DNA of 64,000 bases. Source: an uncultured Gammaproteobacteria bacterium. Lineage in GTDB: Bacteria > Patescibacteriota > Patescibacteriia > UBA9934. The stretch is from NCBI GenBank assembly GCA_964452565.1, contig CAYVLY010000001.1, positions 78,638 to 142,637 on the forward strand, given 5' to 3'. The translations under genes were made by a program, and so were the position numbers. A model generated the notes under the pieces. That model was not told where the DNA came from. It ran no database searches and saw nothing but the letters and a program-made list of their open reading frames with translations. Of the stretch, positions 7,369 to 23,912 are shown one piece after another (the first letter of the stretch is position 1; every line of letters starts with the position of its first letter).

Positions 7369-10263
7369 ATGAAAAAAAGTTTTAACAAAATAATTATGAA
7401 GCGCATAATATCTTTTATTTGGATTTTCGCTTTTTTTGCAAGTGCGATTTTACCAGCAATGCATGTTCAGGCAGCTGACATAGAAGCCACTGCTGGAAGC
7501 CTTGTCAAGAACGAAACCCAATCAGCCGTATATTACTATGGCAGCGACGGAAACAGATACGCCTTTCCTAACGAGAAGGTGTTTTTTACTTGGTACGATG
7601 ATTTTGATGATGTAGTCGAAATTTCAGATGACGATATGGCAGATCTGCCATTGTCCGGGATAGTTACCTATCGGCCGGGAATTCGAATGGTTAAGATTCA
7701 GTCAGTACCAAATGTTTATGCAGTTTCAGCTGGTGCAGTTTTGCACTGGGTAACAACAGAAGAGGTTGCTGAGGCATTGTATGGATCAAGTTGGAATGCA
7801 TACATCGACGATGTATCTGATGCATTCTGGTATCACTATTCATTTGGTGGAGATCTAACACTTTCTAGCGGTTATGATCCAGACGAGGAAGAGTCATCGT
7901 CCGATGATATTGATGATGACCTTGATTTACGAGACGATGATGCAGTAGAGGGCTCACCAGAGGCTCCGACCCTTACAGCCCCTACGTCAGCAGAATCTGG
8001 AGAAGAATTTGATATCACCTGGACAGTTGAAGATGACGCGCTCTATTACTTACTACAAACCTCAACAAATGTCTCTTTCGCAGATGCAGATGAGGAGCAA
8101 TTTTCAAATTATCCAGATTTATCAGATGGAGAAACAACTGACAGCATTACAGAAACCACCTATTACAGGATGAGAGGTGATAATAACATTGGACAGGGCT
8201 CCTGGAGTAATGTTGAGACTGTTGTGATCGACACGGGTGAGGAAGACGAGGACTCTGACGGCGATGAAGACGAAGACGAGGATCCGGATGATGACGAAGA
8301 TCCTGATGAGGATGAAGAGCCCGATGAGGATCCAGACGAAGACGAGGATCCGGATGATGACGAAGATCCCGATGAGGACCCAGTCGACGATGATGACGAC
8401 GATGATGTGGATCCATTTGTGATTATCGAAAATGTACCAGATGGCCAGCAGCCACCAATGAACTCATATGGATATGGAGATACAAATTTCTGTGCTCCTA
8501 TTTCAGCTGCAAACGTCACTGAATATTGGGATGTAGTTATGGGTGAGCCAAATGCTGATCAAGTTGATGCTGATTTATTTGTAGTTGAAACAGTCGCAGA
8601 TTTTATTGGATTCTTCATGAATACTAATGGCATGGGAAGTATTAACCGTGACTTTGGCCTTGGTATGGGAACTCCGATAAGTAATATAGAAGACGGAATT
8701 TTGGATTGGGTTGTTTGGGATGGACTAGATGGAACGCAGTACGGATTTGATGATCCATGGTTTGATCTAGCTGGAAAAGTAGATTACACATCTTGGGATG
8801 TTGAGACACTAGACTTTACTGAGTCCTCAGATACGGATGCCTGGGATGATTATATGGATGAGATTGATGCTGGTAGGCCAACAGTCTTGTCATTTGCATA
8901 TTGGAATCCAAAATTTATAGATGAAGATACTGATCATGATGTTAAATTCTACAGTTGGGGCGATCAGATTTATTCATCTGAGGAGTCAGAGTTTGCACCT
9001 GAATTTAATGAGCCAGAATACTGGTACACAGATTCCTCTCCAAAGTATTCAACAGGGCATTCTGTGACTGGTGTTGGTTATGTTGAAGAATATGATGCTG
9101 GAGACGGATACACACGTGATTGGGCAATTGTGCACGATAACTGGGATACAACTGGAGAAAATGTTGCTATTCCATGGGAAATGTGGACAGCAACCACAAC
9201 AATCGAACCATTGGCTAATGCAGTCCCAGATGTACCAGAGCCATCAGGCCTGCCAGAGATCATGGTTGAAGACGTTTCATATACCCTTGAGTGGGATCAT
9301 GTACAAGGTGCAAAGACATATTGTATTGAGTGGGCAACTAATGAAGATTTTGACGATGCCCTTGCATCATGTGCCTGGAATGGTTATGAGACAACTTATG
9401 ATGTGACTCCTAGCATTGACCTGTGGACAGAAGAGCGGTTCCATAGAGTAAAGGCATGTAATGATATGGGATGTAGTGATTGGAGCGATACAGTTGAGTC
9501 AATAGTATTTTGGGACGATCCAGTTGTAGTTCCAGATGAGTCTGCCACGATTGGAGATGCTTTAAATGCCGTTGATGATTATGGAATCGTATATATTGAA
9601 CCCGGAACATATTATGAGGGTGAATTGTCTCTTCCAACTGGTGTATATCTAGCTGGTGCAGGAATTGATGAGGTAACCATTGATTCAACCGGTAGTTATG
9701 TTGGAGCTTATTGTTCAGATTCATATAATGTTATTCATAGTCTAACGATGACCGGTGCTAGAAGTACGCTTGTGTCATGTGATAACGGTGGCATTACTAT
9801 TCAAAAGTCAGTATTAATTGCAGATAATCAAGAAGGCTGGAATGCTAGTGGTGTCTATGCAGCTAATGGAGCCTATGTTGGTCTTTATAATGTTACTGTG
9901 GCAGCTCCAACTTACGGCGATAACGGGGTTATCACAGATACAGATAGTGATAATTATGTGTACGTCTACAACTCAATAATAGAAGGATTCACGCAAGGAA
10001 TATTTATACAGGGAGGTTTATTTATCGGTGATTATAATGATGTAAATGGGCCATATGGTGAAAGAAACTGGTATGGATATGCAACCCCAGGTGCCAATTC
10101 AATAACTGCTGATCCGTTATTCGTGGATCCTGCTGGGCATGATTTCCATTTAGATCCTGCATCTCCGTGTGTTGATGCTGGAGATCCAGAGGCTTGGTAT
10201 GCCGATGAGGATGGAACTATGAATGACATGGGAGCTTATGGAGGAACATTGATGGGGGATTAG
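7369..10263 (+). CDS. Secreted multidomain protein: signal peptide, poly-Asp/Glu repeat linker, papain-like Cys peptidase-like domain, Fn3-like domain, C-terminal right-handed beta-helix
   Basis: Signal peptide MKKSFNKIIMKRIISFIWIFAFFASAILPAMHVQA; Cys motif NFCAPISAAN, His motif GHSVTGVGY, DNWD in papain order; parallel beta-helix repeats and ..DPLFVDPAGHDFHLDPASPCVDAG.. tail. Confidence 0.75.
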   Translation: MKKSFNKIIMKRIISFIWIFAFFASAILPAMHVQAADIEATAGSLVKNETQSAVYYYGSDGNRYAFPNEKVFFTWYDDFDDVVEISDDDMADLPLSGIVTYRPGIRMVKIQSVPNVYAVSAGAVLHWVTTEEVAEALYGSSWNAYIDDVSDAFWYHYSFGGDLTLSSGYDPDEEESSSDDIDDDLDLRDDDAVEGSPEAPTLTAPTSAESGEEFDITWTVEDDALYYLLQTSTNVSFADADEEQFSNYPDLSDGETTDSITETTYYRMRGDNNIGQGSWSNVETVVIDTGEEDEDSDGDEDEDEDPDDDEDPDEDEEPDEDPDEDEDPDDDEDPDEDPVDDDDDDDVDPFVIIENVPDGQQPPMNSYGYGDTNFCAPISAANVTEYWDVVMGEPNADQVDADLFVVETVADFIGFFMNTNGMGSINRDFGLGMGTPISNIEDGILDWVVWDGLDGTQYGFDDPWFDLAGKVDYTSWDVETLDFTESSDTDAWDDYMDEIDAGRPTVLSFAYWNPKFIDEDTDHDVKFYSWGDQIYSSEESEFAPEFNEPEYWYTDSSPKYSTGHSVTGVGYVEEYDAGDGYTRDWAIVHDNWDTTGENVAIPWEMWTATTTIEPLANAVPDVPEPSGLPEIMVEDVSYTLEWDHVQGAKTYCIEWATNEDFDDALASCAWNGYETTYDVTPSIDLWTEERFHRVKACNDMGCSDWSDTVESIVFWDDPVVVPDESATIGDALNAVDDYGIVYIEPGTYYEGELSLPTGVYLAGAGIDEVTIDSTGSYVGAYCSDSYNVIHSLTMTGARSTLVSCDNGGITIQKSVLIADNQEGWNASGVYAANGAYVGLYNVTVAAPTYGDNGVITDTDSDNYVYVYNSIIEGFTQGIFIQGGLFIGDYNDVNGPYGERNWYGYATPGANSITADPLFVDPAGHDFHLDPASPCVDAGDPEAWYADEDGTMNDMGAYGGTLMGD
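8237..8415 (+). repeat. Tandem ~66-bp repeat encoding an EDEDPDDDEDPDEDEEPD acidic low-complexity linker
   Basis: Unit gacgaagacgaggatccggatgatgacgaagatccNgatgagga repeated from 8269 and 8335. Confidence 0.8.
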
Positions 10264-10291
10264 ATGATTCAAATACAATTGAAATAGCATA

Positions 10292-10320
10292 CCGCCCGGT
10301 CCATCGAATGGACCGGGCGG
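10292..10320. terminator. Bidirectional terminator: 12-bp perfect stem CCGCCCGGTCCA-tcgaa-TGGACCGGGCGG
   Basis: Lies between convergent genes 7369..10263 (+) and 10344..11081 (-). Confidence 0.7.
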
Positions 10321-10343
10321 TTCGTTGTACGTCGGTATAGCGG

Positions 10344-11081
10344 CTAGGCCTCGAATTCACCGAGTGTCTTGAGGCATTGGGTCAGGTGGTTCTTGATCGC
10401 GGCTTGGTCGAGGATGAAGCCATGATCTCCATAGACACGATGCACAGTCACGTCCTGGTCACAGTACTTGGCATCGTAGTAGAACAGGTCGTTGTGAGGG
10501 ACGACTGCGACCACAGGGCACTTCAGTGGGCCGGTATTGCCGTGGAAGAAGGGCAAGGGAACCAGCCTCAGGCAGCAGCGCATGGGCTCGGGGCGTACGA
10601 TCTCGATGAGTTCCCGAGCCTTTCTGCTGGAATGGGCTTCGCCACGCTGCTCCCAGTTGAAGAAGGCCCTCCGGATCCTATCGAGGTTGTCGAGTGTCAC
10701 GTTGCCGGCGAAGAACCCGCGGAAGAATTCCCAGGGGATCGTCAGTACGCCGCGGACGTAGCCCCAGAAGGGCAGGCCGTACTGCGTAGTGGCTGCGAGC
10801 AGGATCACACTACTGAAGAGCTTGGGATTGTGGCGCGCGAGACGGCGGAGTGGAACGCCACCCATGGAGTAGGCGATTCCGATCACACCCTCGGTGATGC
10901 CTTCGTCGCCGAGCTGCTGCTTGCACGCGTCGACCATCTCGCGGACAGTGGTACCCTTGTAGCGCATGATGATCACGCGGTAGTCGCGGTCCGTGAAGAA
11001 TTCGATCACGAACTTGAGCCAGAGCTCAACGACTCCGCGGCTCCAGGCGCCAGGGAAAAGAACAACAGTCTTCTGCTTCAT
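10344..11081 (-). CDS. Alpha/beta-hydrolase fold protein (GxSxG nucleophile elbow GIAYSMGG)
   Basis: AAGGAG RBS 6 nt before ATG (MKQKTVVLFPG); GYSMGG motif, C-terminal His (GDHGF); GC-rich codons. Confidence 0.65.
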   Translation of the reverse strand: MKQKTVVLFPGAWSRGVVELWLKFVIEFFTDRDYRVIIMRYKGTTVREMVDACKQQLGDEGITEGVIGIAYSMGGVPLRRLARHNPKLFSSVILLAATTQYGLPFWGYVRGVLTIPWEFFRGFFAGNVTLDNLDRIRRAFFNWEQRGEAHSSRKARELIEIVRPEPMRCCLRLVPLPFFHGNTGPLKCPVVAVVPHNDLFYYDAKYCDQDVTVHRVYGDHGFILDQAAIKNHLTQCLKTLGEFEA

Positions 11082-11189
11082 CTTTGGCTCCTTCTGGTCC
11101 ATCCTTGGACCTGCCAGCTTGGGCGTCATGCCCTTTCTCGAAGCCGAGTACTACACCATGATTAGCGACTTTTGTCAATTAAAACATAA

Positions 11190-11220
11190 AAAACTACTAA
11201 CGTTTAACGTTGGTAGTTTT
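11190..11220. promoter_or_regulatory. 31-bp near-perfect palindrome AAAACTACTAACGTT-T-AACGTTGGTAGTTTT between divergent -35 boxes
   Basis: TTGACA on the minus strand (plus 11174..11179) and TTGACA on the plus strand (11222..11227) flank the palindrome symmetrically; candidate operator shared by divergent genes. Confidence 0.6.
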
Positions 11221-11284
11221 ATTGACATATTCGGCTAATCACAGTACATTTCGTTCTTGTCCCATCACTTGAAAGGAGACTCTC

Positions 11285-12160
11285 TTGAGTGCAACTACAC
11301 TTCTTGTCCTGTTGGCAATGGCGCTCTTCGGGGGCTTTGCTGATGCATTCCGAAAGGTCGTGCTCGGGAAGCTCGGTCTGTATTCAACTGTGGGGTTCAT
11401 CTATCTGGGTTTTGCATTGCCCTTTGGAATCGCCTTCATGATCGTCACCAGAACATATCCGATCATTACTAGCAGTCTGATTGTGGCACACATGACTGCA
11501 CTTCCATTTGTCGGCCTGACAGTGGTTCTGTTCTACAGTGCGTTGCAGAAGACGGACTTCTCGATTTCTGCATCCATCTTCGGATTGGCGCCAGCAACTG
11601 CCATGATTGGAGAGTGGATTATTGGACGTTCCGAGCCAAGCTGGGCTGGAGCGCTTGGGATCCTCGTTGTGTCACTCGGTGCTTATATCCTTCATCTAGA
11701 CGCCTTCAAACATGGGCCGCTGACGCCGTTCAAACGGTTGCTCAAGGATCGGGGCGCCAGGCACGCACTTTACGCAGTGATTGCTATCGCGATCGCTATT
11801 CCATTCCAGCGTGAGGCTGTCTGTGTCTCCAAGAGTCCCGGATTCTGGATGGTCGTGGAGTCGAGCCTATGCATTCCGTTCCTGCTCTTTGGGGTGATCA
11901 AGGAGCGCGCCAAATGGCAGGTCACCACACAAACCAGGCTTTTCACCTTAGGCGCCGGGTCCATGTGGAGTATACATGGGATTTTGCTCTACACGGGTCT
12001 TCAGCTCACGCTCGGTGGATATGTCATGGCCATGCGTTCGTTGGCACTACTAGTCGGCTTCACGCTCGCTTACTTGATCCTCAGGGAAAAGGTGCGTTCG
12101 CGTATTCCTGGAATGCTTGTGATCATCATCGGAACGTTCGTGATCTCGCTCCTGGCTTGA
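11285..12160 (+). CDS. EamA/DMT-superfamily transporter (10 predicted TM helices)
   Basis: TTG start with GGAGA RBS; two repeated 5-TM halves; GC-rich. Confidence 0.65.
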   Translation: MSATTLLVLLAMALFGGFADAFRKVVLGKLGLYSTVGFIYLGFALPFGIAFMIVTRTYPIITSSLIVAHMTALPFVGLTVVLFYSALQKTDFSISASIFGLAPATAMIGEWIIGRSEPSWAGALGILVVSLGAYILHLDAFKHGPLTPFKRLLKDRGARHALYAVIAIAIAIPFQREAVCVSKSPGFWMVVESSLCIPFLLFGVIKERAKWQVTTQTRLFTLGAGSMWSIHGILLYTGLQLTLGGYVMAMRSLALLVGFTLAYLILREKVRSRIPGMLVIIIGTFVISLLA

Positions 12161-12185
12161 TCGCATCAGGTAGCCTCACCTCGGT

Positions 12186-12207
12186 CCTCCCTTGCGGAGG
12201 GCTTTTT
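12186..12207 (+). terminator. Hairpin CCTCCC-ttgc-GGAGGG + CTTTTTG, immediately followed by TTGACG
   Basis: Stem-loop plus T-run after the transporter gene. Confidence 0.55.
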
Positions 12208-12288
12208 GCTTGACGCAATGCTGGAAAAACGCTAACTTTCAAATGTCGCACGGAGCGGCAATAAGTAAATAGGAAGGGAAGTGAGAGA

Positions 12289-12738
12289 ATGGATCCGACT
12301 ACATGGATATGCGCTGCCGTAGCTGGCTTGTTCATCCTGTGGCTGATCGCGAAGGTCGTCAGCAAGCAGCAGACACGGTGGCGTCTTTCTCGCCCGATCA
12401 GCGCGTTCGATAGCTCTGCAGATAAGCTCCTGATCGAGGGTACGATCACGTCTGCGCGTGGCCGAGTTGTTGATACTGGGGAATATCGAAGTATCGGCCC
12501 TGGTGATCTTGCACCAGACATCGCTACATTCTGGACCTATAAGGTGCAGCTCAGCGATGGCACTACAGAGATCGTTCCAGGTATCCGTGAGAGTGTTCGG
12601 AAAAGGAGGGGTCTGCCAAACGACAACTCGGTCGGGCATGTCGCAGTCCTGTTCCTGCGCCGACGTGTCTTCTTCAGACAGAGGTGGGTCCGCTGGAAGT
12701 TGCAGGCCTGGAGCCACGAGGCAATACGCCTAGACTAG
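12289..12738 (+). CDS. Hypothetical membrane-anchored protein
   Basis: GGAAGGGAAG RBS before ATG, N-terminal TM helix; an antisense ORF of similar length looks spurious. Confidence 0.4.
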   Translation: MDPTTWICAAVAGLFILWLIAKVVSKQQTRWRLSRPISAFDSSADKLLIEGTITSARGRVVDTGEYRSIGPGDLAPDIATFWTYKVQLSDGTTEIVPGIRESVRKRRGLPNDNSVGHVAVLFLRRRVFFRQRWVRWKLQAWSHEAIRLD

Positions 12739-12926
12739 CACAGGGATCCTGCCGCACATCGTCGTTCAAGTTCGGCTCACACAGCCGGGCTTTTTGCTTT
12801 GTTGTAGTTTTATTTATCCACATTGACAAAAAGTAGATTTACCCCATGTTTCGGGCATAGGGGCCAGCACCCGGTGCTGGACATGAAATGTGATATAATT
12901 GCGCGCGATAATGAGTTACATCTTTT

Positions 12927-13274
12927 ATGCAATCACTTGAGCAAGTTTATTTAAGATTACAAAAATCAAAAGCAAAGCGTCGGGAGTTTAATAAGATGAT
13001 TCGCGATGAGCTTTCGCAGGACCAGAGATATCGCGAGCTGACAGAGGAAATGAAAAAGCTGCGAGACGAGCGCAAGTCCATCGAAAACGAAATAAAGGCT
13101 CAGACAGCAAGCCCACAAGAGCTTGATGAGCTAAAGATCGAGATTCAAACAGATCAAGAACTTTTGGCTGATGTTGCACTGAATATGTTTATGGATAACG
13201 AATCAGTTGAAATCCTTGATGAACATGATCAGCGGTGGGTGCCACTGTTCTCAGTAAAATTCATTAAAGACTAA
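12927..13274 (+). CDS. Hypothetical coiled-coil protein
   Basis: TGATATAAT extended -10 at 12890..12898; charged heptad-rich sequence; rho-independent terminator at 13281..13303. Confidence 0.5.
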   Translation: MQSLEQVYLRLQKSKAKRREFNKMIRDELSQDQRYRELTEEMKKLRDERKSIENEIKAQTASPQELDELKIEIQTDQELLADVALNMFMDNESVEILDEHDQRWVPLFSVKFIKD

Positions 13275-13280
13275 CAAGAC

Positions 13281-13303
13281 CCCCGCAAACGCGGGATTTT
13301 GTT
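13281..13303 (+). terminator. Hairpin CCCGC-aaac-GCGGG + ATTTTGTT
   Basis: Stem-loop followed by a T-run. Confidence 0.55.
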
Positions 13304-13370
13304 ATCCATAGAGTACTTGCATTCGAGACGTTTATCCCGTAAAATAGCGTCGTTATTCACTTATTTGATT

Positions 13371-15401
13371 ATGGAGAAAAAACGAGGATTTCGTACACGG
13401 CGAGGGCTATATGGTGCTTTAATTGCGATTGTCGTGGTTTTTGTTTTAACAGCATCTGCTGCATTTCCTGGACCTTGGAATACGGCCGCGCGAGGCATCG
13501 AAAGCGCAGTTGGGCTAAACATGCCCGAGTTTAATGAAGATGACTTTAAACTCGGACTTGACCTTCAGGGAGGTGTGCATTTGGTATATGAGGCAGATAT
13601 GTCCGCGATCGATGCAGGAGATCGTGCCACTGCAGTTGAAGGTGTGCGCGATGTCATTGAGCGTCGTGTAAACGCATTTGGAGTTTCCGAACCAATTGTT
13701 CAAACAAATATAAACGGCGATCACTTTAGAATCATTGTTGAACTTGCAGGTATTTTCGATATTGAAGAGGCTGTAGGGCTGATTGGAGAGACACCAATCC
13801 TTGAGTTCAAGGTTCCAAAGGAGGATTTGGATGAGGCAGTAGAGTTAACAGAAGAACAGGAGATCCAAATGGCAGAAGCGCAAGCAGAAGAAGAAACTGC
13901 GGCCCTTGAGGTGTTAGATAGGGCACTAGCAGGTGAAGACTTTGGAGATTTGGCTCGCGAGATATCAATATCTTCAACTTCATTTAATAAAGGGTATTAC
14001 GGATATGTAACAGAAGATGACACTGTATTTGGCGAGCTTGTTGATCAAATCCAGAGCGAAAGACTTTCAGAAGGGGTTATTGATGGGCTTTATGAGTACA
14101 ACTCAACTCTTCATATAGTCGAGTACACAGGGACACAAGAGTCCGAGGAGGTCGAATTGTCACATATTCTTATATGCCACTCAGAGTCAACTTCGTGTGA
14201 TTCAGATCGTCCAATTGTTGAAGCGCAGCTTTATATTGAAGAGATACTGGCAGAAGTAACAACTTCAAATTTTGCAGATAAAGCAATTGAGTACTCAGAG
14301 GGTCCATCTGGTCCAGACGGAGGATATCTAGACTGGGTTGTAGAAGGAATGATGGTTGAACCGTTTGAAGATGCTGCATTTGCACTTTCAGATGGTGAGA
14401 TATCTGAGGTTGTAGAAACAGAGTTTGGTTACCACATTATTTATCGATCAGATTCACGAACAGAGACTCAGTACGAGATCTCTCACATTGAAATGGAATG
14501 GACAACAGAATCGGATCTGCTTGATCTAGATCCATGGGAGAACACTGAGCTTTCTGGAAAGCATGTAGATCAGGCAGCAGTTGCATTTGATCCAAACACT
14601 GGAATTCCATATGTATTGCTTAACTTTGATAGTGAGGGTGCAGATTTGTTCACAGCACTTACTGAGGAGCACGTAGGTAATATAATCGGAATCTTCCTAG
14701 ATGGAACAGCAATCTCAACTCCAGTTGTTCAGGATGTAATCTATGGAGGCGAGGCGACTATTACAGGAGATTTCACTATTGATGAGGCAAAGCTATTAGC
14801 TCAGCGACTAAATGCTGGTGCACTACCAGTACCAATCGAACTTTTAAGTCAACAGACGGTTGGACCTACCTTAGGCGCCATATCACTTGAGAGCAGCATT
14901 AACGCCGCACTTATCGGAATTATTTTACTAGCTCTGTTCATGATTACTTACTACCGATTATCTGGAATTTTGGCAGTATTGGCATTAATAGTGTATACGG
15001 GAGTTAACCTAGCACTATATAAGTGGCTTGGAGTTACAATGACATTGGCTGGAATCGCTGGATTTATCCTGTCACTTGGAATGGCAGTTGATGCAAATGT
15101 CCTTATCTTTGAGCGGCTTAAAGAGGAACTTAAGAGTGGACGTGATCTTTCAACAGCGATTGATGAAGGATTTAGACGGGCATGGACATCTATCCGTGAT
15201 GGAAATATTACAACATTGATCGCAGCGGGAGTGCTATTTACACTCAGCGGATTTATCAAAGGATTTGCTCTGACGCTTGCCATTGGTATCTTAGTTTCAA
15301 TGATGACAGCAATCTTTGTGACACGAATCTTATTGCAATGGGTAAGTGGATGGAAACCAGCACAGAAGCATTGGCTCTACGGTGTAAAGAAAACAAAATA
15401 G
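13371..15401 (+). CDS. secD: Protein translocase subunit SecD with inserted tandem parvulin-type PPIase domains
   Basis: SecD N-terminal motifs (LGLDLQGGVHLVYE, GVSEPIVQ, IGETPILEFK) and C-terminal TM bundle (GPTLG..LALYKWLGVTMTLAGIAGFILSLGMAVDANVLIFERL); the insert contains a PpiC-like LSHILICH..GPSGPDGGYLDWVVEGMMVEPFEDAAF..FGYHIIYR. Confidence 0.85.
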   Translation: MEKKRGFRTRRGLYGALIAIVVVFVLTASAAFPGPWNTAARGIESAVGLNMPEFNEDDFKLGLDLQGGVHLVYEADMSAIDAGDRATAVEGVRDVIERRVNAFGVSEPIVQTNINGDHFRIIVELAGIFDIEEAVGLIGETPILEFKVPKEDLDEAVELTEEQEIQMAEAQAEEETAALEVLDRALAGEDFGDLAREISISSTSFNKGYYGYVTEDDTVFGELVDQIQSERLSEGVIDGLYEYNSTLHIVEYTGTQESEEVELSHILICHSESTSCDSDRPIVEAQLYIEEILAEVTTSNFADKAIEYSEGPSGPDGGYLDWVVEGMMVEPFEDAAFALSDGEISEVVETEFGYHIIYRSDSRTETQYEISHIEMEWTTESDLLDLDPWENTELSGKHVDQAAVAFDPNTGIPYVLLNFDSEGADLFTALTEEHVGNIIGIFLDGTAISTPVVQDVIYGGEATITGDFTIDEAKLLAQRLNAGALPVPIELLSQQTVGPTLGAISLESSINAALIGIILLALFMITYYRLSGILAVLALIVYTGVNLALYKWLGVTMTLAGIAGFILSLGMAVDANVLIFERLKEELKSGRDLSTAIDEGFRRAWTSIRDGNITTLIAAGVLFTLSGFIKGFALTLAIGILVSMMTAIFVTRILLQWVSGWKPAQKHWLYGVKKTK

Positions 15402-15404
15402 CTT

Positions 15405-16319
15405 ATGAAGTACTTTGACGTAATAGGAAAATCAAAAATCTGGCTTACAGTCTCTGGAATATTGATTGCGGCATCTATCGTAAGCATTGCAGTCTTTGGA
15501 CTAAATATTGGAATTGACTTTACTGGTGGGTCTCTGATGGATGTCACATTTGACGAGCCAGTCACTATTGATCAAGTTCGTTCTGTATATGAGACCTCAG
15601 AGTATTCAGCAACAGTGCAGCAGAGTAGTGAAACTGAGTATCTCGTCAGGCTTGAATCACTAACACAGGAGCAGCACACACAGCTTTTAGTTGATTTAGA
15701 AGAGCAGATAGGATCATTCGAAGAAAATAGATATGAGACTATTGGATCAGTAATTGGGAGTGAGCTAAAAGCAACATCAGTCAAGGCGATTATTATTTTG
15801 CTTGTATTGATCGTTATCTATGTAGCTTGGGCGTTCCGAAAGGTTTCGGAGCCAGTTAAATCGTGGAAGTACGGTGTTTTGACTATTGTTGCAGCAGCCC
15901 ATGATGTGATTATTCCACTTGGAATTTTCGCAGCACTGGGACATTACCTGGGATATGAGGTGAACACCGCGTTTGTTGCAGCACTATTGACCATTTTGGG
16001 TTATTCGATTAACGATACAATTGTTATCTTTGATCGGACTCGTGAGAATTTAGTGAATAATAAGAATAGCGCAAAGTCATTCAAGGAAGTTGTGAACATG
16101 AGTGTTGCTCAAAGTTTTGCAAGGTCAATTAATACTTCTTTGACAACCTTATTAGTTTTGCTTGCAATTCTCATATTTGGTGGAGAAACAACAAAGCCGT
16201 TTGTACTTGCATTGATTATCGGAGTTATGTCAGGTGCGTATTCATCAATTTTCCTTGCAAGTCCATTGCTTGTGAAATGGGAAGAGTGGAAGCGCAAGCG
16301 TGAGTCAATCACAGAATAA
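15405..16319 (+). CDS. secF: Protein translocase subunit SecF
   Basis: SecF motifs GIDFTGGS, 6-TM C-terminal domain; adjacent to secD. Confidence 0.85.
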   Translation: MKYFDVIGKSKIWLTVSGILIAASIVSIAVFGLNIGIDFTGGSLMDVTFDEPVTIDQVRSVYETSEYSATVQQSSETEYLVRLESLTQEQHTQLLVDLEEQIGSFEENRYETIGSVIGSELKATSVKAIIILLVLIVIYVAWAFRKVSEPVKSWKYGVLTIVAAAHDVIIPLGIFAALGHYLGYEVNTAFVAALLTILGYSINDTIVIFDRTRENLVNNKNSAKSFKEVVNMSVAQSFARSINTSLTTLLVLLAILIFGGETTKPFVLALIIGVMSGAYSSIFLASPLLVKWEEWKRKRESITE

Positions 16320-16332
16320 AAAAGAAATAAAA

Positions 16333-16358
16333 AACTCTCGACTTCGGTCGGGAGTTTT
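16333..16358 (+). terminator. Hairpin AACTCTCGAC-ttcg-GTCGGGAGTT + TTTTATTTT
   Basis: 10-bp stem with one G-U pair, T-run. Confidence 0.6.
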
Positions 16359-16431: not shown

Positions 16432-18033
16432 ATGGAGGCCATTTATCAATGGTTTACAAACTACTTAGCAACAACCCCACCTGATCAGCTTGGTGTTGAT
16501 ATTTTGCTTTACTTTGGATGGTTCCCGATTTTTTCGATTGTCGTATGGGGATTTTTGCAGATTTGGACAGATGTAAAACAAGGGCAGTATTGGGAAAAGC
16601 TTGAGTGGGATTTACTCGCAGTTACAATCCCACAAGATGCAGTTCAGACCCCAAAAGGAATGATGAACTTCTTTAACAACCTTTCAGGAAGTAAGTCTGC
16701 AATCACTTGGAAAGAAAAATGGTTCTGGGGAAAGTTTCAGGCCTACTTTACATTTGAGATTGTAAGTAACGGTGGACATATCCAGTATTACATTCGTACT
16801 ATCAAAAAATACCGTGATCTTGTCGAAGCAGCGCTTTATGCTCAGTATCCAGAAGCTCAGATCGTTGAGGTTGAAGACTATGTTGATCAGATTCCAAATG
16901 ATTTTCCAAACGATGAATGGGACTGTTTTGGAACAGAGCTCAGCATGTCCAAGGATCATATCTACCCAATCAAGCGCTTTGAAGACTTTGAGCATGTTGG
17001 TGAGAAGGATCTCAGATTCAAAGATCCGATCCTTCCAATGCTTGAGATGATGGGAAAGATGAGACAGGGTGAATATTACTGGATCCAGCTTTTGATTATG
17101 GGACCTGAGGGTCAGGATTGGCGTAAAGATGCAGCTAAATGGATGAAAAAGATGTATGGAATCGAGGATAAGAAAAAGAAGGGTCTCATTGAGAGTTCTA
17201 TTGGCTGGGTTCCAGCTGGTATTTTTGAACAAGTAACAGGGACGGCATTTGGTGCAGGGGATGAGCCTTCAGCAGATGATTTCAGAATGTGGAAAATGAC
17301 ACCAGACGAGCAAGATACTTTAAAGGCAGTTAATGAAAAATCAAAGGAGATAGGATGGCTTTCAAAGATCAGAATGGTTTATTGTGCAAGAAAAGAGGTA
17401 TTTCGAAAGGGAACAATTGCTTCAATGACAAAGGGGATCTTTTTACAGTTTGATTCTAGGATGAATAAACTCGGACTCACCGCTAATGTTACGACGAAAG
17501 ATGATTACTTCTGGCAGGAATGGCAAATGCCTGGAAAACAAAGGACTTTGGTTAAGAAATATAAGAACAGGTCCTTTGGTGCGGGGACAACCCCTTACAT
17601 TCTTTCATCTTCAGAGCTTGCAACTTTATGGCACTTTCCACCAGCTGACGCTAGGACACCAGTTCTTACTTCTCTTGGCGCGCGTATGGCAGAAGCTCCT
17701 GTTGAGCTAGGATTTGCACGTGATGAAGAATCGATTTTACCGAACATTGAGAGAAGCTCATCAGATGTTGAGGGTTCTGCGCCAGTTCGTGCAGAGGCTG
17801 CTCCAGAGTTTGTACCAGAGACTCCTACACCAACAGCGCCAACTACATCTGCACCAGCAGAGCAATTTGAACCTACAGTTCCTGAACCAGCCGCACCAAC
17901 TCAGGTGGAAGAGGTGTTAGCACCTGATAAGCCAGAATTTCAAGCTGGCATGCCAGCCCCAATGCCACCAGGGCTTGATATATCTGATATAGATGTCGAA
18001 CAAGCTGGGGCGCCTGACGATTTACCAGTTTAA
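16432..18033 (+). CDS. Membrane protein homologous to the N-terminal domain of the fused VirD4-like protein 38857..41355; Pro/Thr/Ala-rich C-terminal tail
   Basis: TGCTATAAT extended -10 ends 8 nt before ATG; IQYYIRTIKKYRDLVEAALYAQYPEAQIVEVEDY matches ITFYITVPRYMQNFVEQQLHAQYSAAAIEPVKDY, and ELATLWHFPPADARTP matches EELAGLWHLPIPSTETP. Confidence 0.6.
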   Translation: MEAIYQWFTNYLATTPPDQLGVDILLYFGWFPIFSIVVWGFLQIWTDVKQGQYWEKLEWDLLAVTIPQDAVQTPKGMMNFFNNLSGSKSAITWKEKWFWGKFQAYFTFEIVSNGGHIQYYIRTIKKYRDLVEAALYAQYPEAQIVEVEDYVDQIPNDFPNDEWDCFGTELSMSKDHIYPIKRFEDFEHVGEKDLRFKDPILPMLEMMGKMRQGEYYWIQLLIMGPEGQDWRKDAAKWMKKMYGIEDKKKKGLIESSIGWVPAGIFEQVTGTAFGAGDEPSADDFRMWKMTPDEQDTLKAVNEKSKEIGWLSKIRMVYCARKEVFRKGTIASMTKGIFLQFDSRMNKLGLTANVTTKDDYFWQEWQMPGKQRTLVKKYKNRSFGAGTTPYILSSSELATLWHFPPADARTPVLTSLGARMAEAPVELGFARDEESILPNIERSSSDVEGSAPVRAEAAPEFVPETPTPTAPTTSAPAEQFEPTVPEPAAPTQVEEVLAPDKPEFQAGMPAPMPPGLDISDIDVEQAGAPDDLPV

Positions 18034-18034
18034 T

Positions 18035-20125
18035 ATGCCAATGCGATACCCGCATGATCACGAAAATGACGTAATATATTTCGGACGAGTTAATTTCCGT
18101 AATAAATTGCAAACCTTTGGGGTAAAAACTGACGATAGACGTCGGCATATTTATGTTGTTGGAAAAACAGGTATGGGTAAAACAACCCTGCTTGAAAACA
18201 TGATACTTTCTGACATCTATGCTGGACATGGCTGCGCTTATATTGACCCTCACGGAGATACAGCTGAGAAGTTGCTTGATTATATTCCAAGTTGGCGTAT
18301 CAATGATGTTGTTTATTTTGATCCATCAGATCTTGAACACCCAATCGGATTTAATATTTTGGAAGCAGTAGATGAGAAAATGAAGCATTTAGTTGCAGCA
18401 GGGATGATGTCAGTGTTTAAAAAAATCTGGGAAGGAGTCTGGTCTGCACGAATGGAATACATCTTGAATAACACGATCTTGGCTTTGATGGATACACCAA
18501 AGACAACACTTCTTGGAATTAATAGAATGCTCTCAGACGATTCGTATAGAAAAGAGATTATATCAAATGTAAAAGATCCGATCGTTAAGCAGTTCTGGGT
18601 GATGGAGTTTGAAAGTTATCAGTCAAAGTTTGCTTCAGAGGCTGTAGCCCCGATTCAGAACAAGGTTGGTCAGTTTCTTTCAGCGAGCATTATTCGAAAT
18701 ATCGTTGCTCAGGCCAAATCATCCATGAATATTCGTGAGTTAATGGACAATCAGAAGATTTTTATTGTTAATCTATCAAAGGGACGCATTGGAGAAGATG
18801 CTTCAAGGCTGCTTGGAGGGCTTTTGATTACGAAAATTCAGATGTCTGCGATGGAACGAGTTGATGTGCTTGAGGAGGAGCGACAGGATTTTTACATGTA
18901 CGTTGATGAGTTCCAAAACTTTGCAGTTGAATCATTTGCTTCTATTTTGTCTGAGGCGCGAAAGTATCGACTAAACTTGGTCATGGCGCATCAGTATATT
19001 GCACAGCTTACAGAAGAGGTACGTGATGCTGTTTTTGGTAACGTTGGAACAATAATTACGTTTCGTGTTGGTGGGCCAGATGCTGCTTTTATGGAAGAGG
19101 AGTTCATGCCAAGGTTTTTACCAAATGACATGATCAACCTTCCTAAGTTCCATGTTTATCTAAAGTTGATGATCGATGGAGTTACATCTCAGCCATTTTC
19201 AGCACTGACATTGCCTCCAATCGCAACAAACACTAGTTCACGTGAAAGAGTTGTGGAGCAGTCTCGCGAGCGTTATGCTGGGAGTAAGGAAAAAATTGAG
19301 GAAAAGGTTGCTGAGTGGAGTGGGTTTGGAAAAGATGTTGATTTAGAAGGTGAATACGCTAAAGCAAAGCAGACCAAAAAGGATGCTAAAAAGGCAAGAT
19401 TTTCACATGAGTACACATGCACGCGCTGTGGAAAGGTATTCCCATTGCCAGTTGAGTTGGATCGATCAAGACCGATTTATTGTGAGGAATGTCATCCGAT
19501 TGTAATGGAAGAGAGAAAGAGTGGTAAAAAAAGAGGCGGTGAGAAAAGACAGTCTCGGGAAAGAGAAAAGAAAGTAGTTGAAAAGCCGCCAAAGGTTGAT
19601 GAGGGTGAGGTTATAGAAAAGGACACTGGAAAGACAGTGGGTCTTGATGCTTTGTCGTCCGATAAGATTAAAGACAAGAAGGAAAGAAAGCCTGAACCAG
19701 AGAAGAAAAAAGAAAAGCCAAAGCCAGAGATCGAGGCTAAGGAGATGATGGATCAGAACTCAGAACTCAGAACCCAGAACGCAGACAAAGATCAAAATCT
19801 GAAGAACCAATCAGAAGGGCAGGAGAAAAGGCCTGATCGGCCTAAGCAGGAACCAAAACCTGATAAAAGACCGCAGCAAAGAGAGTCACGGCAAAGGGGT
19901 GATCAACAAGATCGATCAAGTCAACAAGAGCAGCCAAAGCGCAAGCGACGTAGGAGAAAGAGGAAGAAGAAACCGGGTGGAGGATCTGGGAATCAAAATC
20001 AAGCAGATTCTTCGACTAGGCCTCAGAAAGACGTAGATACTGGTAAAAAGCCAAAGGCAGATAGGTCAAGAGATAATAAAACCCAATCAGTACTTCCTGG
20101 CGAACGAGTGACATTCGAGGAGTAA
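18035..20125 (+). CDS. VirD4/TraG/TraD-like type IV secretion coupling ATPase with C-terminal zinc ribbon and Lys/Arg/Glu-rich disordered tail
   Basis: Walker A VVGKTGMGKTT, Walker B YVDEFQNF, MAHQY; CTRCGK..CEECH CxxC-CxxC motif; (CAGAACN)x4 microsatellite at 19754..19786. Confidence 0.75.
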   Translation: MPMRYPHDHENDVIYFGRVNFRNKLQTFGVKTDDRRRHIYVVGKTGMGKTTLLENMILSDIYAGHGCAYIDPHGDTAEKLLDYIPSWRINDVVYFDPSDLEHPIGFNILEAVDEKMKHLVAAGMMSVFKKIWEGVWSARMEYILNNTILALMDTPKTTLLGINRMLSDDSYRKEIISNVKDPIVKQFWVMEFESYQSKFASEAVAPIQNKVGQFLSASIIRNIVAQAKSSMNIRELMDNQKIFIVNLSKGRIGEDASRLLGGLLITKIQMSAMERVDVLEEERQDFYMYVDEFQNFAVESFASILSEARKYRLNLVMAHQYIAQLTEEVRDAVFGNVGTIITFRVGGPDAAFMEEEFMPRFLPNDMINLPKFHVYLKLMIDGVTSQPFSALTLPPIATNTSSRERVVEQSRERYAGSKEKIEEKVAEWSGFGKDVDLEGEYAKAKQTKKDAKKARFSHEYTCTRCGKVFPLPVELDRSRPIYCEECHPIVMEERKSGKKRGGEKRQSREREKKVVEKPPKVDEGEVIEKDTGKTVGLDALSSDKIKDKKERKPEPEKKKEKPKPEIEAKEMMDQNSELRTQNADKDQNLKNQSEGQEKRPDRPKQEPKPDKRPQQRESRQRGDQQDRSSQQEQPKRKRRRRKRKKKPGGGSGNQNQADSSTRPQKDVDTGKKPKADRSRDNKTQSVLPGERVTFEE

Positions 20126-20126
20126 T

Positions 20127-20915
20127 ATGACAATACCTCAGGCAATAATTGCAGGTATCGTTCAAGGAATCACTGAGTTTATTCCAATATCAAGTTCTGG
20201 TCATCTGATTATAGTACGTGAACTTTTTGGAATTGAAATGGAAAGTCTAAGTTTTGATGTTGCCGTCCATATCGCAACGCTTGCGGCTGTAGTTTGGGTA
20301 ATGCGCAGGGAGATTTTCGATATTGTTAAAGAGTTCTTTTCTAAGAAGATCTGGAAATCAACTGGGCTTAAGATAATTGCAGCAACAATACCAGCTGTTA
20401 TCTTCGGACTCATTCTAAATGGTGATTTGATCGACCTGATTCGAACAACTCAAGTGGTTGCAGTGTCATTAATATTTTGGGGCATTGTTTTGTTCATTGC
20501 TGACATTTTTGCTAAAAAGCAGAAGAAGCTGATCGAAAAGCTCCAAAAAATTGGCTGGATTCGCGCAATTATAATCGGTATAGCACAAGCTATCGCGCTT
20601 ATTCCAGGCACGTCACGCGCTGGAATCACAATGACAGCTGGACTTTTTACAGGGATCGATCGGGTGCGTGCAGCACGATTCTCTTTTCTTCTTTCAATAC
20701 CAGTAATCCTTGGAGCTGGTTTATTAACAGCTGTCGAGGCTGTTGAAACAGGGCTAGATATTGGTATTGGGATTCTGATCGCGGGTTGTATTGCGGCGCT
20801 TATCTCAGGAATTATCGCAATTCGATTCTTATTAAAGTTTTTGGAAAAGGGGACATTTGCTGGTTTTGCAGCTTACAGAATCATAATTGGCCTTTTGTTG
20901 TTAATTCTTATTTAG
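20127..20915 (+). CDS. uppP: Undecaprenyl-diphosphatase
   Basis: Conserved EFIPISSSGHLII and PGTSRAGITM motifs; 8 TM. Confidence 0.85.
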   Translation: MTIPQAIIAGIVQGITEFIPISSSGHLIIVRELFGIEMESLSFDVAVHIATLAAVVWVMRREIFDIVKEFFSKKIWKSTGLKIIAATIPAVIFGLILNGDLIDLIRTTQVVAVSLIFWGIVLFIADIFAKKQKKLIEKLQKIGWIRAIIIGIAQAIALIPGTSRAGITMTAGLFTGIDRVRAARFSFLLSIPVILGAGLLTAVEAVETGLDIGIGILIAGCIAALISGIIAIRFLLKFLEKGTFAGFAAYRIIIGLLLLILI

Positions 20916-21467: not shown

Positions 21468-23912
21468 ATGCAGCCAGGTGGACTAAAAAATAAACTCTCT
21501 TTAGCAGTAGTTGCTATTATTGCTGTTTTGGGATTGGCTGCGACATTGATGGTTTACCGCTATGCAAGTCAAGAGTTTTTGGAGTATGAAAAGGGTGAGG
21601 TAGAGCTTACTGCAACTGAGAAATCAAACCAGATCAATTCAATAATGAATTATGGCTTCGCTGCTGTAACTACACTTGGTAGCCATCAGGCTGTTGCAGA
21701 TTTTGTAACAGGAGCAGATGGAAGGATTACGCAGGAGCAGATGTTGAATCAGTTAATTGATGCTAATATTGCTGATTTGTTTTCTGCTATTTATATAATG
21801 GATGAAACTGGCTTAACCCTGGTCTCAACTGATGAAAGATTTACTGGAAACAACTACGGGTTTAGAACGTACTTCGAAACTGCAAAAAATGGTGAGGTTT
21901 CGGTTGATGTAGCGCTTGGGGTAACGAGCCAGAAAATTGGATTCTATTTCTCAAGCCCTATTTATGATAGTGCTGGTGAATTTGCAGGTGTTGTTGTTGC
22001 AAAGCTAGAGCCTGATGCACTTGGTGGAGTACTTGCACTGCCATCTGTCATGCAACACGCACACATAATGTTTGTTGATCGCTTTGGTGTGATCGTATAT
22101 TCAGGTAATACAGAACATGAATTGATGGCTCTATCAGAACTTGACGATGATCAGCTTGCGGAGATTGATGAAAAAAGATATTACGAGGGCGCAATGTTGG
22201 CGTCTATGGGGCTAGATCAGATTGCAGATTCTCTATTTATACAAGATTACTATTTGATAAAGAGTGTTGAGAGTGCCACAGGCGAGGAATTCATTATAGG
22301 GATTGATAGAATCGGTGATACTTCTTTTCATCTTTTAATAATGGAGGAAACTGAGCATTATCTTGTTGCAGTAAGAAATCTTGCATATCTAATCTCGCTT
22401 TTCGTACTTTTAGCTGCAGTTCTTGCTGCATTAATTATTTCAGGAATTATCTCTCGATTTTTGTCACCACTTGATAAGTTGCGTATTGCTGCGCAAAGGA
22501 TTACGGCTGGGGATTTTTCTCAAAGTGTGGATATCGAGCAAAAGAATGAACTCGGACTTTTGGCACAGGCGTTTAATAGAATGATGAGCTCTTTGATAAG
22601 TGAAAAGGAGCGAGTCGATCAACAGATCTCAGTACAGACCGAACAGTTACGATCGCAGACCGGTGAGCTTGAACAGCGTCAAGCAGCTATGATGAATGTG
22701 CTTGAGGATGTGGCAGATGAAAAGAATAAGACCCAGCAGGTTGCCCAAGATCTACGCAAGTTCAAAATGGCTGTTGATGGAACATCTGATCATGTTGTAT
22801 TAACTGATCCCAATGGAGTAGTTCTTTATGCAAATCCTGCAGTAAAACGCATTACAGGTTTTTCTATTGAGGAGGTAGTTGGTAAGAAAGTTGGCATAAA
22901 GATGATGTGGGGAGGTTTGATGGATTTGGGCTTTTACAAAAAACTATGGGATACGATAAAGATCCAAAAAAGAGTGTTTGTTGGCGAAATCCTCAATAAA
23001 CGAAAAAATGGCGATTTATACGAAGCTGCTGTGACCATAACCCCAATCCTTGATGAAAAAAATAATGTGATTTTCTTTTTGGGTATTGAACGCGACATTA
23101 CGATTGAGAAGAACATCGAACGCGCAAAATCTGACTTTGTTTCTTTAGCATCTCATCAGCTTCGTACCCCGCTGACTGCTATTCGTTGGTATCTTGATTT
23201 GATGCTAGAGGGAGATGTCGGGAAGATGACAGAGGAGCAACTGGATTATCTGAATACAATCAAAGTCAGCAATATACGAATGGTTAATCTTGTTAACTCA
23301 CTATTGAATGTGTCTAGGCTTGAGCTTGGAACCTTCTCTGTTGATCCAGAACCAGTTGACCTCATCAAGATGATCAAGTCTGAATTAGAAGAGCTTGGTG
23401 TGCAGATTCGAACAAAGAGGTTAACACTTGCTGAGAATTATGATCAAACAATTGGCGAACTATCTCTTGATGTTAATTTATCAAGTATTGTTGTTCAAAA
23501 TATCATTTCTAATGCTGTTAAGTATACAAAGGATGAGGGTGAGATATACATTGATCTTTATCAAGGAACTCAAAAGGGTAATCCGAGCAAGAGCCCAACA
23601 CATGTTATCTTTAAAGTTCGAGATACTGGTGAGGGAATTCCTCAAAGTGATCAGCATAGGATTTTTGAAAAGATGTTCCGTGCTGATAATGCTCGAACAA
23701 TAGATCCAGAAGGAAATGGACTCGGACTCTATATGGTCAAGAAAGTTATTGAGGAGACTGGTGGAAGGATTTGGTTTGAAAGTAAAGAGAATGAAGGCAC
23801 TACGTTCTATGTTGCGATTCCAAAGAAGGGGATGAAGAGGCGTGAAGGGACTAAGAGATTGGCATCAGAAGTTGTAAAATCAAATGGCATTAAGCCAGCT
23901 TCAGATAAGTAA
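21468..23912 (+). CDS. Sensor histidine kinase (TM - Cache-like - TM - HAMP - coiled coil - PAS - HisKA - HATPase_c)
   Basis: HAMP LDKLRIAAQRITAGDFSQ.., H-box SHQLRTPLTAI, G-boxes DTGEGIP and GNGLGLYMVKK. Confidence 0.85.
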   Translation: MQPGGLKNKLSLAVVAIIAVLGLAATLMVYRYASQEFLEYEKGEVELTATEKSNQINSIMNYGFAAVTTLGSHQAVADFVTGADGRITQEQMLNQLIDANIADLFSAIYIMDETGLTLVSTDERFTGNNYGFRTYFETAKNGEVSVDVALGVTSQKIGFYFSSPIYDSAGEFAGVVVAKLEPDALGGVLALPSVMQHAHIMFVDRFGVIVYSGNTEHELMALSELDDDQLAEIDEKRYYEGAMLASMGLDQIADSLFIQDYYLIKSVESATGEEFIIGIDRIGDTSFHLLIMEETEHYLVAVRNLAYLISLFVLLAAVLAALIISGIISRFLSPLDKLRIAAQRITAGDFSQSVDIEQKNELGLLAQAFNRMMSSLISEKERVDQQISVQTEQLRSQTGELEQRQAAMMNVLEDVADEKNKTQQVAQDLRKFKMAVDGTSDHVVLTDPNGVVLYANPAVKRITGFSIEEVVGKKVGIKMMWGGLMDLGFYKKLWDTIKIQKRVFVGEILNKRKNGDLYEAAVTITPILDEKNNVIFFLGIERDITIEKNIERAKSDFVSLASHQLRTPLTAIRWYLDLMLEGDVGKMTEEQLDYLNTIKVSNIRMVNLVNSLLNVSRLELGTFSVDPEPVDLIKMIKSELEELGVQIRTKRLTLAENYDQTIGELSLDVNLSSIVVQNIISNAVKYTKDEGEIYIDLYQGTQKGNPSKSPTHVIFKVRDTGEGIPQSDQHRIFEKMFRADNARTIDPEGNGLGLYMVKKVIEETGGRIWFESKENEGTTFYVAIPKKGMKRREGTKRLASEVVKSNGIKPASDK

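Follow-up and report, generated by a model that had tools for sequence, protein, structure and literature searches.

A parvulin module inserted in the extracytoplasmic domain of SecD across a Patescibacteria clade, with signs of a nested, circularly permuted topology

We examined the secD gene and its surroundings in a 64-kb stretch of DNA (hereafter the window: 64,000 nucleotides of contig CAYVLY010000001.1, GenBank assembly GCA_964452565.1), which comes from a genome labelled as an uncultured Gammaproteobacteria bacterium and placed by GTDB in the Patescibacteriota. The original prediction for this stretch held that SecD carries an inserted parvulin (peptidyl-prolyl isomerase, PPIase) module between 13800 and 14600. 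This is borne out by Rotamase profile matches above cutoff within a single open reading frame (ORF), and the insert occupies nucleotides 13818-14555 (residues 150-395, ~246 aa), between the base and head subdomains of the extracytoplasmic P1 domain. The parts of the secD-secF locus are listed below. Residues are numbered along the 676-aa protein that starts at the ATG at 13371, and profile coordinates given for the 700-aa ORF are brought to this numbering by subtracting 24.

13282..13295 (+): hairpin terminator of the upstream 115-aa ORF, CCCGCAAACGCGGG then ATTTTGTT
13371..15401 (+): secD coding sequence, 676 aa plus stop, frame uninterrupted, TIGR01129
13398..13463 (+): first transmembrane helix (TM1) of SecD, residues 10-31, a helix at 10-31 in the AlphaFold2 model
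13488..13817 (+): N-terminal part of the P1 base, residues 40-149, ending in IGETPILEFKVP (Pfam SecD_1st, Sec_GG)
13818..14132 (+): entry linker, helix 161-186 and body of the putative outer parvulin, degenerate and apparently permuted, residues 150-254 (second Rotamase stretch)
14133..14162 (+): ascending strand of the predicted ribbon, residues 255-264, outer beta4 into inner beta1 (unbroken strand, covariation)
14163..14450 (+): inner parvulin of canonical type, residues 265-360 (Pfam Rotamase, Pin1 fold match)
14175..14198 (+): C269...C276 (C-x6-C), within the inner parvulin's beta1-alpha1 loop
14451..14471 (+): descending strand of the predicted ribbon, residues 361-367 (unbroken strand 353-376, covariation)
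14472..14501 (+): trailing strand YEISHIEMEW, residues 368-377, with H372, putative permuted beta1 of the outer parvulin (covariation)
14541..14831 (+): intact P1 head, residues 391-487 (PF22599, 97.6 bits, profile positions 18-114 of 114)
14835..15344 (+): TM2-TM6 of SecD, including the TM4 residue D574 (AVDANV), which aligns to Thermus thermophilus D340
15405..16319 (+): secF, 304 aa, TIGR00966 at 285 bits against a cutoff of 160
16331..16358 (+): terminator hairpin 3' of secF

The protein belongs to the SecD family. It exceeds the cutoffs of NCBIfam TIGR01129 (367.5 bits against 244.4) and of Pfam PF22599 (97.6 against 27), PF21760 (54.2 against 27) and PF02355 (57.8 against 20.5), is encoded next to SecF, and keeps the residues of the proton path. 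On the 700-aa ORF, SecD_1st covers 114-172, SecDF_P1_head 415-511 (E 5e-28) and SecD_SecF_C 513-682. Residues 56-153 align to chain residues 30-122 of T. thermophilus SecDF (3AQP) and residues 380-658 to chain residues 146-425, and the extracytoplasmic part extends from TM1 to about residue 497. In SecF, the motifs that contain D204 (SINDTIV) and R240 (FARSINT) correspond to those of D637 and R671 in T. thermophilus. Since D574, D204 and R240 are all kept, the proton-driven machinery looks intact, and SecD and SecF are predicted to be a working pair.

The ORF at 13299..15401 (+) contains neither a stop nor a frameshift. Its sole irregularity, an upstream TTG at 13299, stems from a mechanically made list of ORFs; this TTG was dismissed as the start in favor of the ATG at 13371, to which homologues of 675-676 aa align at 100% coverage. 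The terminator of the upstream ORF likewise argues against the TTG and for a 5' limit of the secD-secF unit at this point. Because terminators flank the pair, the two genes can be treated as one unit.

The module enters SecD in the connector joining the P1 base and the P1 head, at a position that falls between residues ~122 and ~146 of the T. thermophilus chain. The suggestion that the parvulin pair replaces the head does not hold: the head is intact, and the module is therefore an insertion and not a replacement. The predicted size of ~260 aa is right as the span between the LEFK and AVAFD motifs but too large as a net gain, which comes to ~190-215 aa when compared with relatives lacking the insert, whose connectors measure 29-54 aa. 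All the motifs quoted in the original prediction are present in the translation. This connector has a length of anywhere from 7 to 145 aa in other phyla and holds no recognisable domain there; it appears to be a permissive site for insertions and seems to be a general insertion hot spot of SecD. Insertions of 95-145 residues occur at this connector in a Gemmatimonadota locus (L052, 3815-5716) and in three loci of Cyanobium (L056, L065, and L067). No extra Pfam-recognisable domain was found in the L052 connector insertion, the only one of these that was scanned.

Within the insert, Pfam Rotamase_3 matches residues 274-383 of the 700-aa ORF (E 1.9e-26, 93 bits against a cutoff of 22.5) in two stretches, and Rotamase (PF00639) matches residues 289-384 of that ORF (E 6e-25, 88.4 bits against 21.7) over profile positions 1-96 of 97. 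The second Rotamase stretch corresponds to the degenerate upstream copy that had been proposed, and this copy is real by three lines of evidence, namely the profile, the alignment to SurA P1 and the Foldseek comparison. When the insert is compared with sequences in the PDB, the upstream copy aligns with SurA P1 and the downstream copy with SurA P2. The AlphaFold2 model of the protein, built from 66 sequences, has a mean predicted local distance difference test score (pLDDT) of 86.8 and a predicted template modelling score (pTM) of 0.53, with pLDDT values of 90-97 in the insert. Its top Foldseek matches are SecDF structures (E 1e-20 to 1e-24); ~250 columns align to SurA (1m5y, E 2e-8), and the Pin1 PPIase domain is matched with a template modelling (TM) score of 0.78 and a root-mean-square deviation of 2.6 A. 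The inner domain (261-360) is a parvulin by both profile and fold. The outer domain, with its degenerate tetrad, is a parvulin by homology and descent. No second, free parvulin ORF was found in the 64-kb window, nor was a free parvulin gene found in 80 related loci with flanks of ~8 kb, a sample that says little on the whole genome.

The secondary structure of the insert departs from a simple succession of two domains. In the AlphaFold2 model, helices at 161-186 and 191-198 are followed by a strand at 209-213, a helix at 221-230 and a strand at 235-243. One unbroken strand (246-268) then carries LHIVEY, the last strand of the upstream copy (copy 1), straight into LSHILIC, the first strand of the downstream copy (copy 2), and a second unbroken strand (353-376) leads from GYHIIY into YEISHIEMEW. 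We calculated covariation as mutual information with average product correction (APC) across 129 non-identical double-insert sequences (effective number of sequences, Neff, 108). Ten of the top 50 covarying pairs connect 241-260 with 363-380 in antiparallel register (i+j = 618-623). They are H248-H372, S245-W377, E260-R363, G254-E369, T253-E369, T255-T366, Q256-Q367, Y243-E380, Y241-W377, and Y241-T378. The trailing strand is tied to the body of copy 1 by Y209-E369, I200-E374 and V224-I370, and strand 261-268 to the body of copy 2 by L263-A336 and V261/E262-W322. Counts among the top 100 pairs are as follows.

Copy-1 core with the trailing strand: 14 pairs, 3.4 expected
Copy-1 core with strand 258-268: 0 pairs, 2.5 expected
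Copy-2 core with strand 258-268: 7 pairs, 2.9 expected
Copy-2 core with the trailing strand: 1 pair, 3.6 expected

From the unbroken strands and the covariation we infer that the outer parvulin is circularly permuted and that the inner one is nested in its last hairpin. An arrangement of sequential SurA-like units, each forming a hairpin with the strand that follows it, was rejected, there being no covariation on the i+j ~514 or ~728 diagonals. Residues 150-254 supply the outer domain with its helices, beta2 (209-213), beta3 (235-243), and beta4 with H248; taken together with 368-377, the outer domain has every element of the fold and yet not the canonical topology, as beta1 comes last. The data point to an order of helices, beta2, helix, beta3, beta4 and then, ~115 residues later, beta1, and to a long two-stranded ribbon that bears a canonical inner parvulin at its tip. 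Covariation also links the segments by which the chain enters and leaves the insert (K150-E390 and L159-E380), so that a stalk rising from the host loop is to be expected. The SurA P1/P2 arrangement that had been proposed is thus right in domain content and wrong in order, with copy 1 permuted and copy 2 nested within it.

We take the parvulin tetrad to be His - Asp/Cys - Thr/Ser - His (H59, C113, T152, and H157 in Pin1; H42, D74, T118, and H123 in Par14). Both histidines of the inner domain (H265 and H355) are found in 129/129 family members, position 350 is T in 120 and S in 9 of them, and conservation of the pocket residues L320, M328/V329 and F332 is 90% or higher. At the Asp/Cys position (311) the family has D in 78, E in 16 and G in 34 of 129 members, every G being preceded by D or E. 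The window protein combines H265, T350, and H355 with G311 and a preceding E310 (YSEGPSGPDGG), and the same S-[DE]-G-P-S variant occurs in the free tandem parvulins P0121 and P0127. The retention of the His pair, of T/S350, of an acidic residue at 310/311 in nearly all members and of the pocket indicates that the inner domain is under purifying selection. Judging from residue conservation, the domain is a canonical and likely active parvulin. The original prediction had called this copy active outright; the His pair and the Thr support that, and the Gly at 311, with Glu at 310, makes it less certain than stated.

Two further patterns of conservation were seen in the double module. C269 and C276 are invariant in 66/66 sequences and present in 127/129 of the larger set, having been lost together in the other two, and a C269-C276 disulfide is probable. 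The outer domain has both histidines in 93/129 members and shows no conservation at the Asp and Thr positions of the tetrad, and F191, Y241, and E242 never vary. The pattern suggests an outer domain kept for a non-catalytic role.

The fusion is not peculiar to one genome but is clade-wide, with single, double and lost states. The best 120 homologues of the window SecD (55-85% identity) all carry Rotamase and SecD domains, and the named records among them are those of "protein translocase subunit SecD" from Candidatus Uhrbacteria, Parcubacteria or Patescibacteria group. Altogether, we found the fusion in >200 independently assembled homologues (NCBI, JGI, ENA, and Logan) and in 19 species representatives of GTDB. 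Of the 80 closest such representatives, 13 have the double module (connector ~245 aa; titles Uhrbacteria, Magasanikbacteria, Parcubacteria or Patescibacteria group), six have a single parvulin (connector 133-146 aa; two Buchananbacteria, Kerfeldbacteria, Komeilibacteria, and others), and the remaining 61 have no insert, including Nomurabacteria, Saccharibacteria, Gracilibacteria, Chloroflexota, Cyanobacteria, and Firmicutes. These taxonomic statements rest on record titles, several of which are apparently mislabelled. In a neighbor-joining tree of the SecD core, calculated with the insert removed, all insert-bearing proteins fall into one Patescibacteria clade in which singles and doubles are interspersed.

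One SecD from this clade (L013, 3884-5398, labelled Uhrbacteria) lacks the insert and has a 52-residue acidic connector instead. It is sister to the pair formed by the window protein and L001 in the core tree, with 68% identity in the best aligned segment, and this placement implies secondary loss. Magasanikbacteria and one other lineage have SecD joined to SecF in a single chain of ~1000 aa that keeps the double insert (for example L008, 3842-6931, and P0007, 978 aa). Seven metagenome-assembled genomes titled "uncultured Gammaproteobacteria bacterium", "Candidatus Binatia" or "Lysobacteraceae" (L001, L006, L009, L010, L023, L002, and L018) encode SecDs of Patescibacteria type, which group with those of named Patescibacteria genomes in the core tree and, in all but L023, have the insert. 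The taxonomic labels of these genomes are probably wrong, or the bins contaminated.

The single-domain form independently supports circular permutation. The best 120 matches to a Buchananbacteria single-domain SecD all contain Rotamase, and ~95 of them are 519-608 aa long, the length of the single-domain form. Pfam matches in this form cover only Rotamase profile positions 9-12 to 95-97, the first strand being missing at the N-terminus, and an xSHILIxTK strand follows FGYHII. The AlphaFold2 model places beta4 and this permuted beta1' in a hairpin (228-238 / 245-254, pLDDT ~90), and pairs 235-249, 236-247, 237-244, and 238-245 covary across it. The strongest covarying pair, C209-C248 (numbering of P0271), links helix alpha4 to the residue two before the trailing His, at positions homologous to L263-A336 of the canonical inner domain. 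Of 100 single-domain sequences, 61 have both cysteines and none has only one; the two probably form a disulfide that staples the permuted strand, whereas the double form has the different pair C269/C276. The tetrad is complete across the permutation break, with D183 in 98/100, T/S225 in 100/100, H230 in 100/100 and H250 in 99/100 sequences.

The nearest relatives of the insert outside SecD are free tandem parvulins. In a library clustered at 50% identity, the best 150 matches to the insert comprise 12 SecD fusions of the same layout and 138 free proteins with 1-4 parvulin repeats, 120 of which have at least two. One may speculate that a fragment of a tandem-parvulin gene was captured out of register, giving the succession body, strand, body, strand. 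An origin of this kind is consistent with the standing of free tandem parvulins, at 41-47% identity, as the nearest non-SecD relatives. The single form may have become double by duplication, or the double form single by deletion between homologous halves; the neighbor-joining tree intersperses the two.

Several genes near the secD-secF unit deserve mention. Directly upstream of secD lies the 115-aa ORF (12927-13295), which is rich in charged residues and has as its sole Pfam match a weak one to the N-terminal (coiled-coil) domain of seryl-tRNA synthetase. We considered this ORF as a monitoring peptide of the SecM/VemP type, which is unlikely, as no signal or transmembrane segment is visible in the translation. 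Further upstream, the GC content of 10001-12800 is 0.53, compared with ~0.42 elsewhere in the window. On this stretch lie an alpha/beta-hydrolase-like ORF on the minus strand (10344-11129) and, on the plus strand, an EamA-family transporter gene (11285-12160), the latter followed by ~600 bp with only overlapping ORFs of spurious look. The stretch may be an island of foreign origin immediately upstream of the secDF unit. Directly 3' of secF, the region 16432-20125 encodes a 533-aa ORF with no Pfam match and a Pro/Glu/Ala-rich tail, which overlaps by 41 nt the gene for a 710-aa TrwB/TraD-like type IV coupling protein; the latter has a treble-clef zinc finger and a long C-terminal tail rich in Lys, Glu, Arg and Gln. 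Next come the undecaprenyl-diphosphatase gene BacA (20127-20915), a gene for a PAS-domain protein and one for a Cache-HAMP-PAS histidine kinase (21468-23912). A sensory kinase of that size is unexpected in a small genome of the Candidate Phyla Radiation (CPR).

Judging from homology and position, we consider it reasonably probable that the module is a built-in foldase or holdase of the PrsA/SurA/PpiD type at the Sec exit. In characterised SecDF proteins the P1 head binds the unfolded chain as it emerges, and the flow of protons makes the head swing. The fusion itself is without an N/C-type domain, and we propose the P1 head as substrate holder, a role that would correspond to that of the N/C chaperone domain of PrsA and SurA. 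The SecD chain would leave the P1 base via a short linker and a 26-residue helix and would then build the outer parvulin without an N-terminal strand of its own. The last outer strand would continue as a ribbon strand into a complete canonical parvulin at the ribbon tip, after which the chain would return down the ribbon, give YEISHIEMEW as the missing central strand of the outer parvulin, and enter the P1 head. A rigid ribbon could present the inner parvulin beside the head, where it may isomerise Xaa-Pro bonds or at least bind the chain, and the degenerate outer parvulin would act as a rigid pedestal and possibly, like SurA P1, as a second binding surface. Export and the first folding steps would then be coupled in one polypeptide, in a monoderm lineage with small genomes.

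By analogy, the module is most likely the covalent counterpart of associations described between separate proteins. The holotranslocon is bound by SurA, whose P1 and P2 parvulins touch the SecDF P1 head in every AlphaFold model (PMC9987972). PpiD-YfgM associates with SecYEG (PMC9643414), and in Mycoplasma pneumoniae PrsA-like PPIase lipoproteins form a dome over SecDF-SecYEG (bioRxiv 10.1101/2025.04.25.650208, 10.1101/2024.09.05.611430). In monoderms the membrane-tethered parvulin foldase is PrsA, and the N/C domain is the seat of its essential chaperone activity (PMC12445088).

Several observations weigh against a foldase of this design. The topology is one to which a secondary-structure string and covariation at Neff ~108 point, and the placement of the module relative to the P1 head and the membrane is uncertain in a model with a pTM of 0.53. 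With Gly at the Asp/Cys position of the tetrad, both here and in 34/129 members, activity appears less certain. The close relative L013 has lost the insert, so the insert is not indispensable. The parvulin of PpiD is inactive. Moreover, for much of its function PrsA can dispense with PPIase activity (PMC12445088), and for these last two reasons catalysis may not be the point.

The parvulin folds might instead serve only as surfaces for protein-protein interaction, with no role in substrate folding. Such a docking or scaffold module could recruit signal peptidase, YidC, a component of S-layer or pilus assembly or the cell wall, or stabilise a SecDF oligomer or the holotranslocon. Inactive parvulin domains with binding roles are known from SurA P1 and PpiD, the outer domain lacks the Asp and Thr positions of the tetrad and nevertheless has F191, Y241, and E242 invariant, and the window protein has Gly in place of the catalytic Asp. 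We regard this as unlikely all the same, as the inner domain keeps its His pair and T/S350 in 129/129 members together with the hydrophobic proline pocket, and single-domain lineages retain the whole tetrad at 98-100%. Such conservation would be puzzling if the active site were idle. Another reading makes the insert a regulator of the mechanical cycle of SecDF, in which the altered hinge would bias the equilibrium between the F-form and the I-form, limit the swing, or gate the access of the head to the SecY exit, chaperone activity being secondary. Work of Tsukazaki (2011) and Furukawa (2017), cited via PMC9987972, reportedly describes the P1 head as swinging about the base-head hinge; the insert sits in one of the two base-head connectors (T. 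thermophilus ~122 to ~146), and the covariation of K150-E390 and L159-E380 puts its stalk at that hinge. A regulator of this sort would not need a conserved PPIase active site, and the range of 7 to 145 aa seen in domain-free connectors of other phyla argues for a permissive loop over a tuned hinge, so that we find this reading quite improbable. To an artefact, in which a separate parvulin gene was joined to secD by a frameshift, a chimeric assembly or a mis-call, we give practically no credence. The original prediction had itself named a frameshift that makes the insert a separate gene as one possible refutation; the frame is continuous with SecD sequence on both sides, insert residues covary with each other and with the flanks, and the fusion recurs in hundreds of independent assemblies, which excludes such a source.

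The preferred reading, a foldase or holdase built into SecD, has a bolder extension that we think improbable, namely that a mechanical coupling ties the module to the swing that protons drive in the P1 head, and that the module is the first natural circularly permuted parvulin with a second one nested within it. If it were so coupled, the proton-motive force would time or power the hand-over of substrate and possibly also prolyl isomerisation or release, and the module would be an energy-coupled folding catalyst in a compartment without ATP.

Apparently, two well-known families are here joined in an undescribed, clade-wide architecture of unusual topology, which is visible in public domain annotation and has passed without comment. 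As the original prediction had supposed, we found no description of such a fusion in full-text literature on SecD together with parvulin, PPIase, PpiC, Patescibacteria, CPR or Parcubacteria, and no paper on parvulins and circular permutation, in a body of text that covered few papers from subscription journals. How chains are handed over from SecYEG to extracytoplasmic chaperones is still debated. The associations of SurA with SecDF, of PpiD/YfgM with SecY and of the Mycoplasma dome are recent findings, and that of SurA with SecDF derives partly from model predictions. A natural fusion provides independent evidence, of the Rosetta-stone type, that the periplasmic domain of SecD and parvulin chaperones work together, and it puts the parvulins beside the P1 head, where AlphaFold docked the parvulin domains of SurA. 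It also offers a compact system for the coupling of export and folding, in one chain and with natural single, double, and insert-less variants. For protein evolution, it suggests that a repeat-derived fragment can fold though cut out of register with its domain boundaries, and it hints at an economy of envelope proteostasis in genome-reduced CPR bacteria.

Among known systems, SecDF itself (T. thermophilus 3AQP/5YHF; Deinococcus radiodurans 5XAN; Escherichia coli SecD-SecF) shares the full core and the adjacent SecF, and differs in that the window SecD has ~200 extra residues with two parvulin domains in the base-to-head connector. To our knowledge, no solved SecD or SecDF structure contains a chaperone or PPIase domain. 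SurA (E. coli 1M5Y) is similar in having one inactive-looking and one active-looking parvulin in one chain outside the cytoplasm. The likeness ends with the parvulins: the N- and C-terminal chaperone core of SurA is absent here, and SurA parvulins are sequential, canonical and carried on flexible linkers. NCBIfam SurA (NF008038) scores 47.6 bits against a cutoff of 394, with only SurA residues 192-386 (P1-P2) aligned, and in the Pfam layout no sequence is left over for a SurA N/C domain, the remainder of the chain being all SecD. The host, unlike that of SurA, is monoderm, and there would be no outer membrane protein (OMP) and beta-barrel assembly machinery (BAM) pathway to serve.

PrsA (4WO7 and 6VJ6) and the Mdp "dome" lipoproteins of Mycoplasma resemble the module as membrane-tethered parvulins acting on Sec substrates in monoderms, where membrane and wall meet, and Mdp also in being physically bound to SecDF-SecYEG. 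They differ in being separate lipoproteins, dimeric in the case of PrsA, with the parvulin inserted in a SurA-like NC domain; in the window protein this domain is missing and the tether is SecD itself. The PrsA models NF002846 and NF002824 reach ~47 bits against cutoffs of ~360 and align to the parvulin region only, and the window SecD begins with TM1 and has no lipobox, so it is not a PrsA. PpiD-YfgM of E. coli is comparable as a membrane-anchored, parvulin-containing chaperone stationed where chains leave the translocon (PMC9643414). As a separate protein on SecY, PpiD has its own transmembrane helix, one (inactive) parvulin and chaperone domains, whereas the window protein has SecD architecture throughout.

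The closest non-SecD relatives are the free tandem parvulins P0121, P0124, P0127, and P0128, which have 2-4 repeats and share with the insert the SHILIxYxG...RTKEEA loop and the S[DE]GPSGPxGG motif. They differ from it as stand-alone secreted proteins or lipoproteins that have the canonical order of repeats and no SecD, and proteins of this type are plausible donors of the insert.

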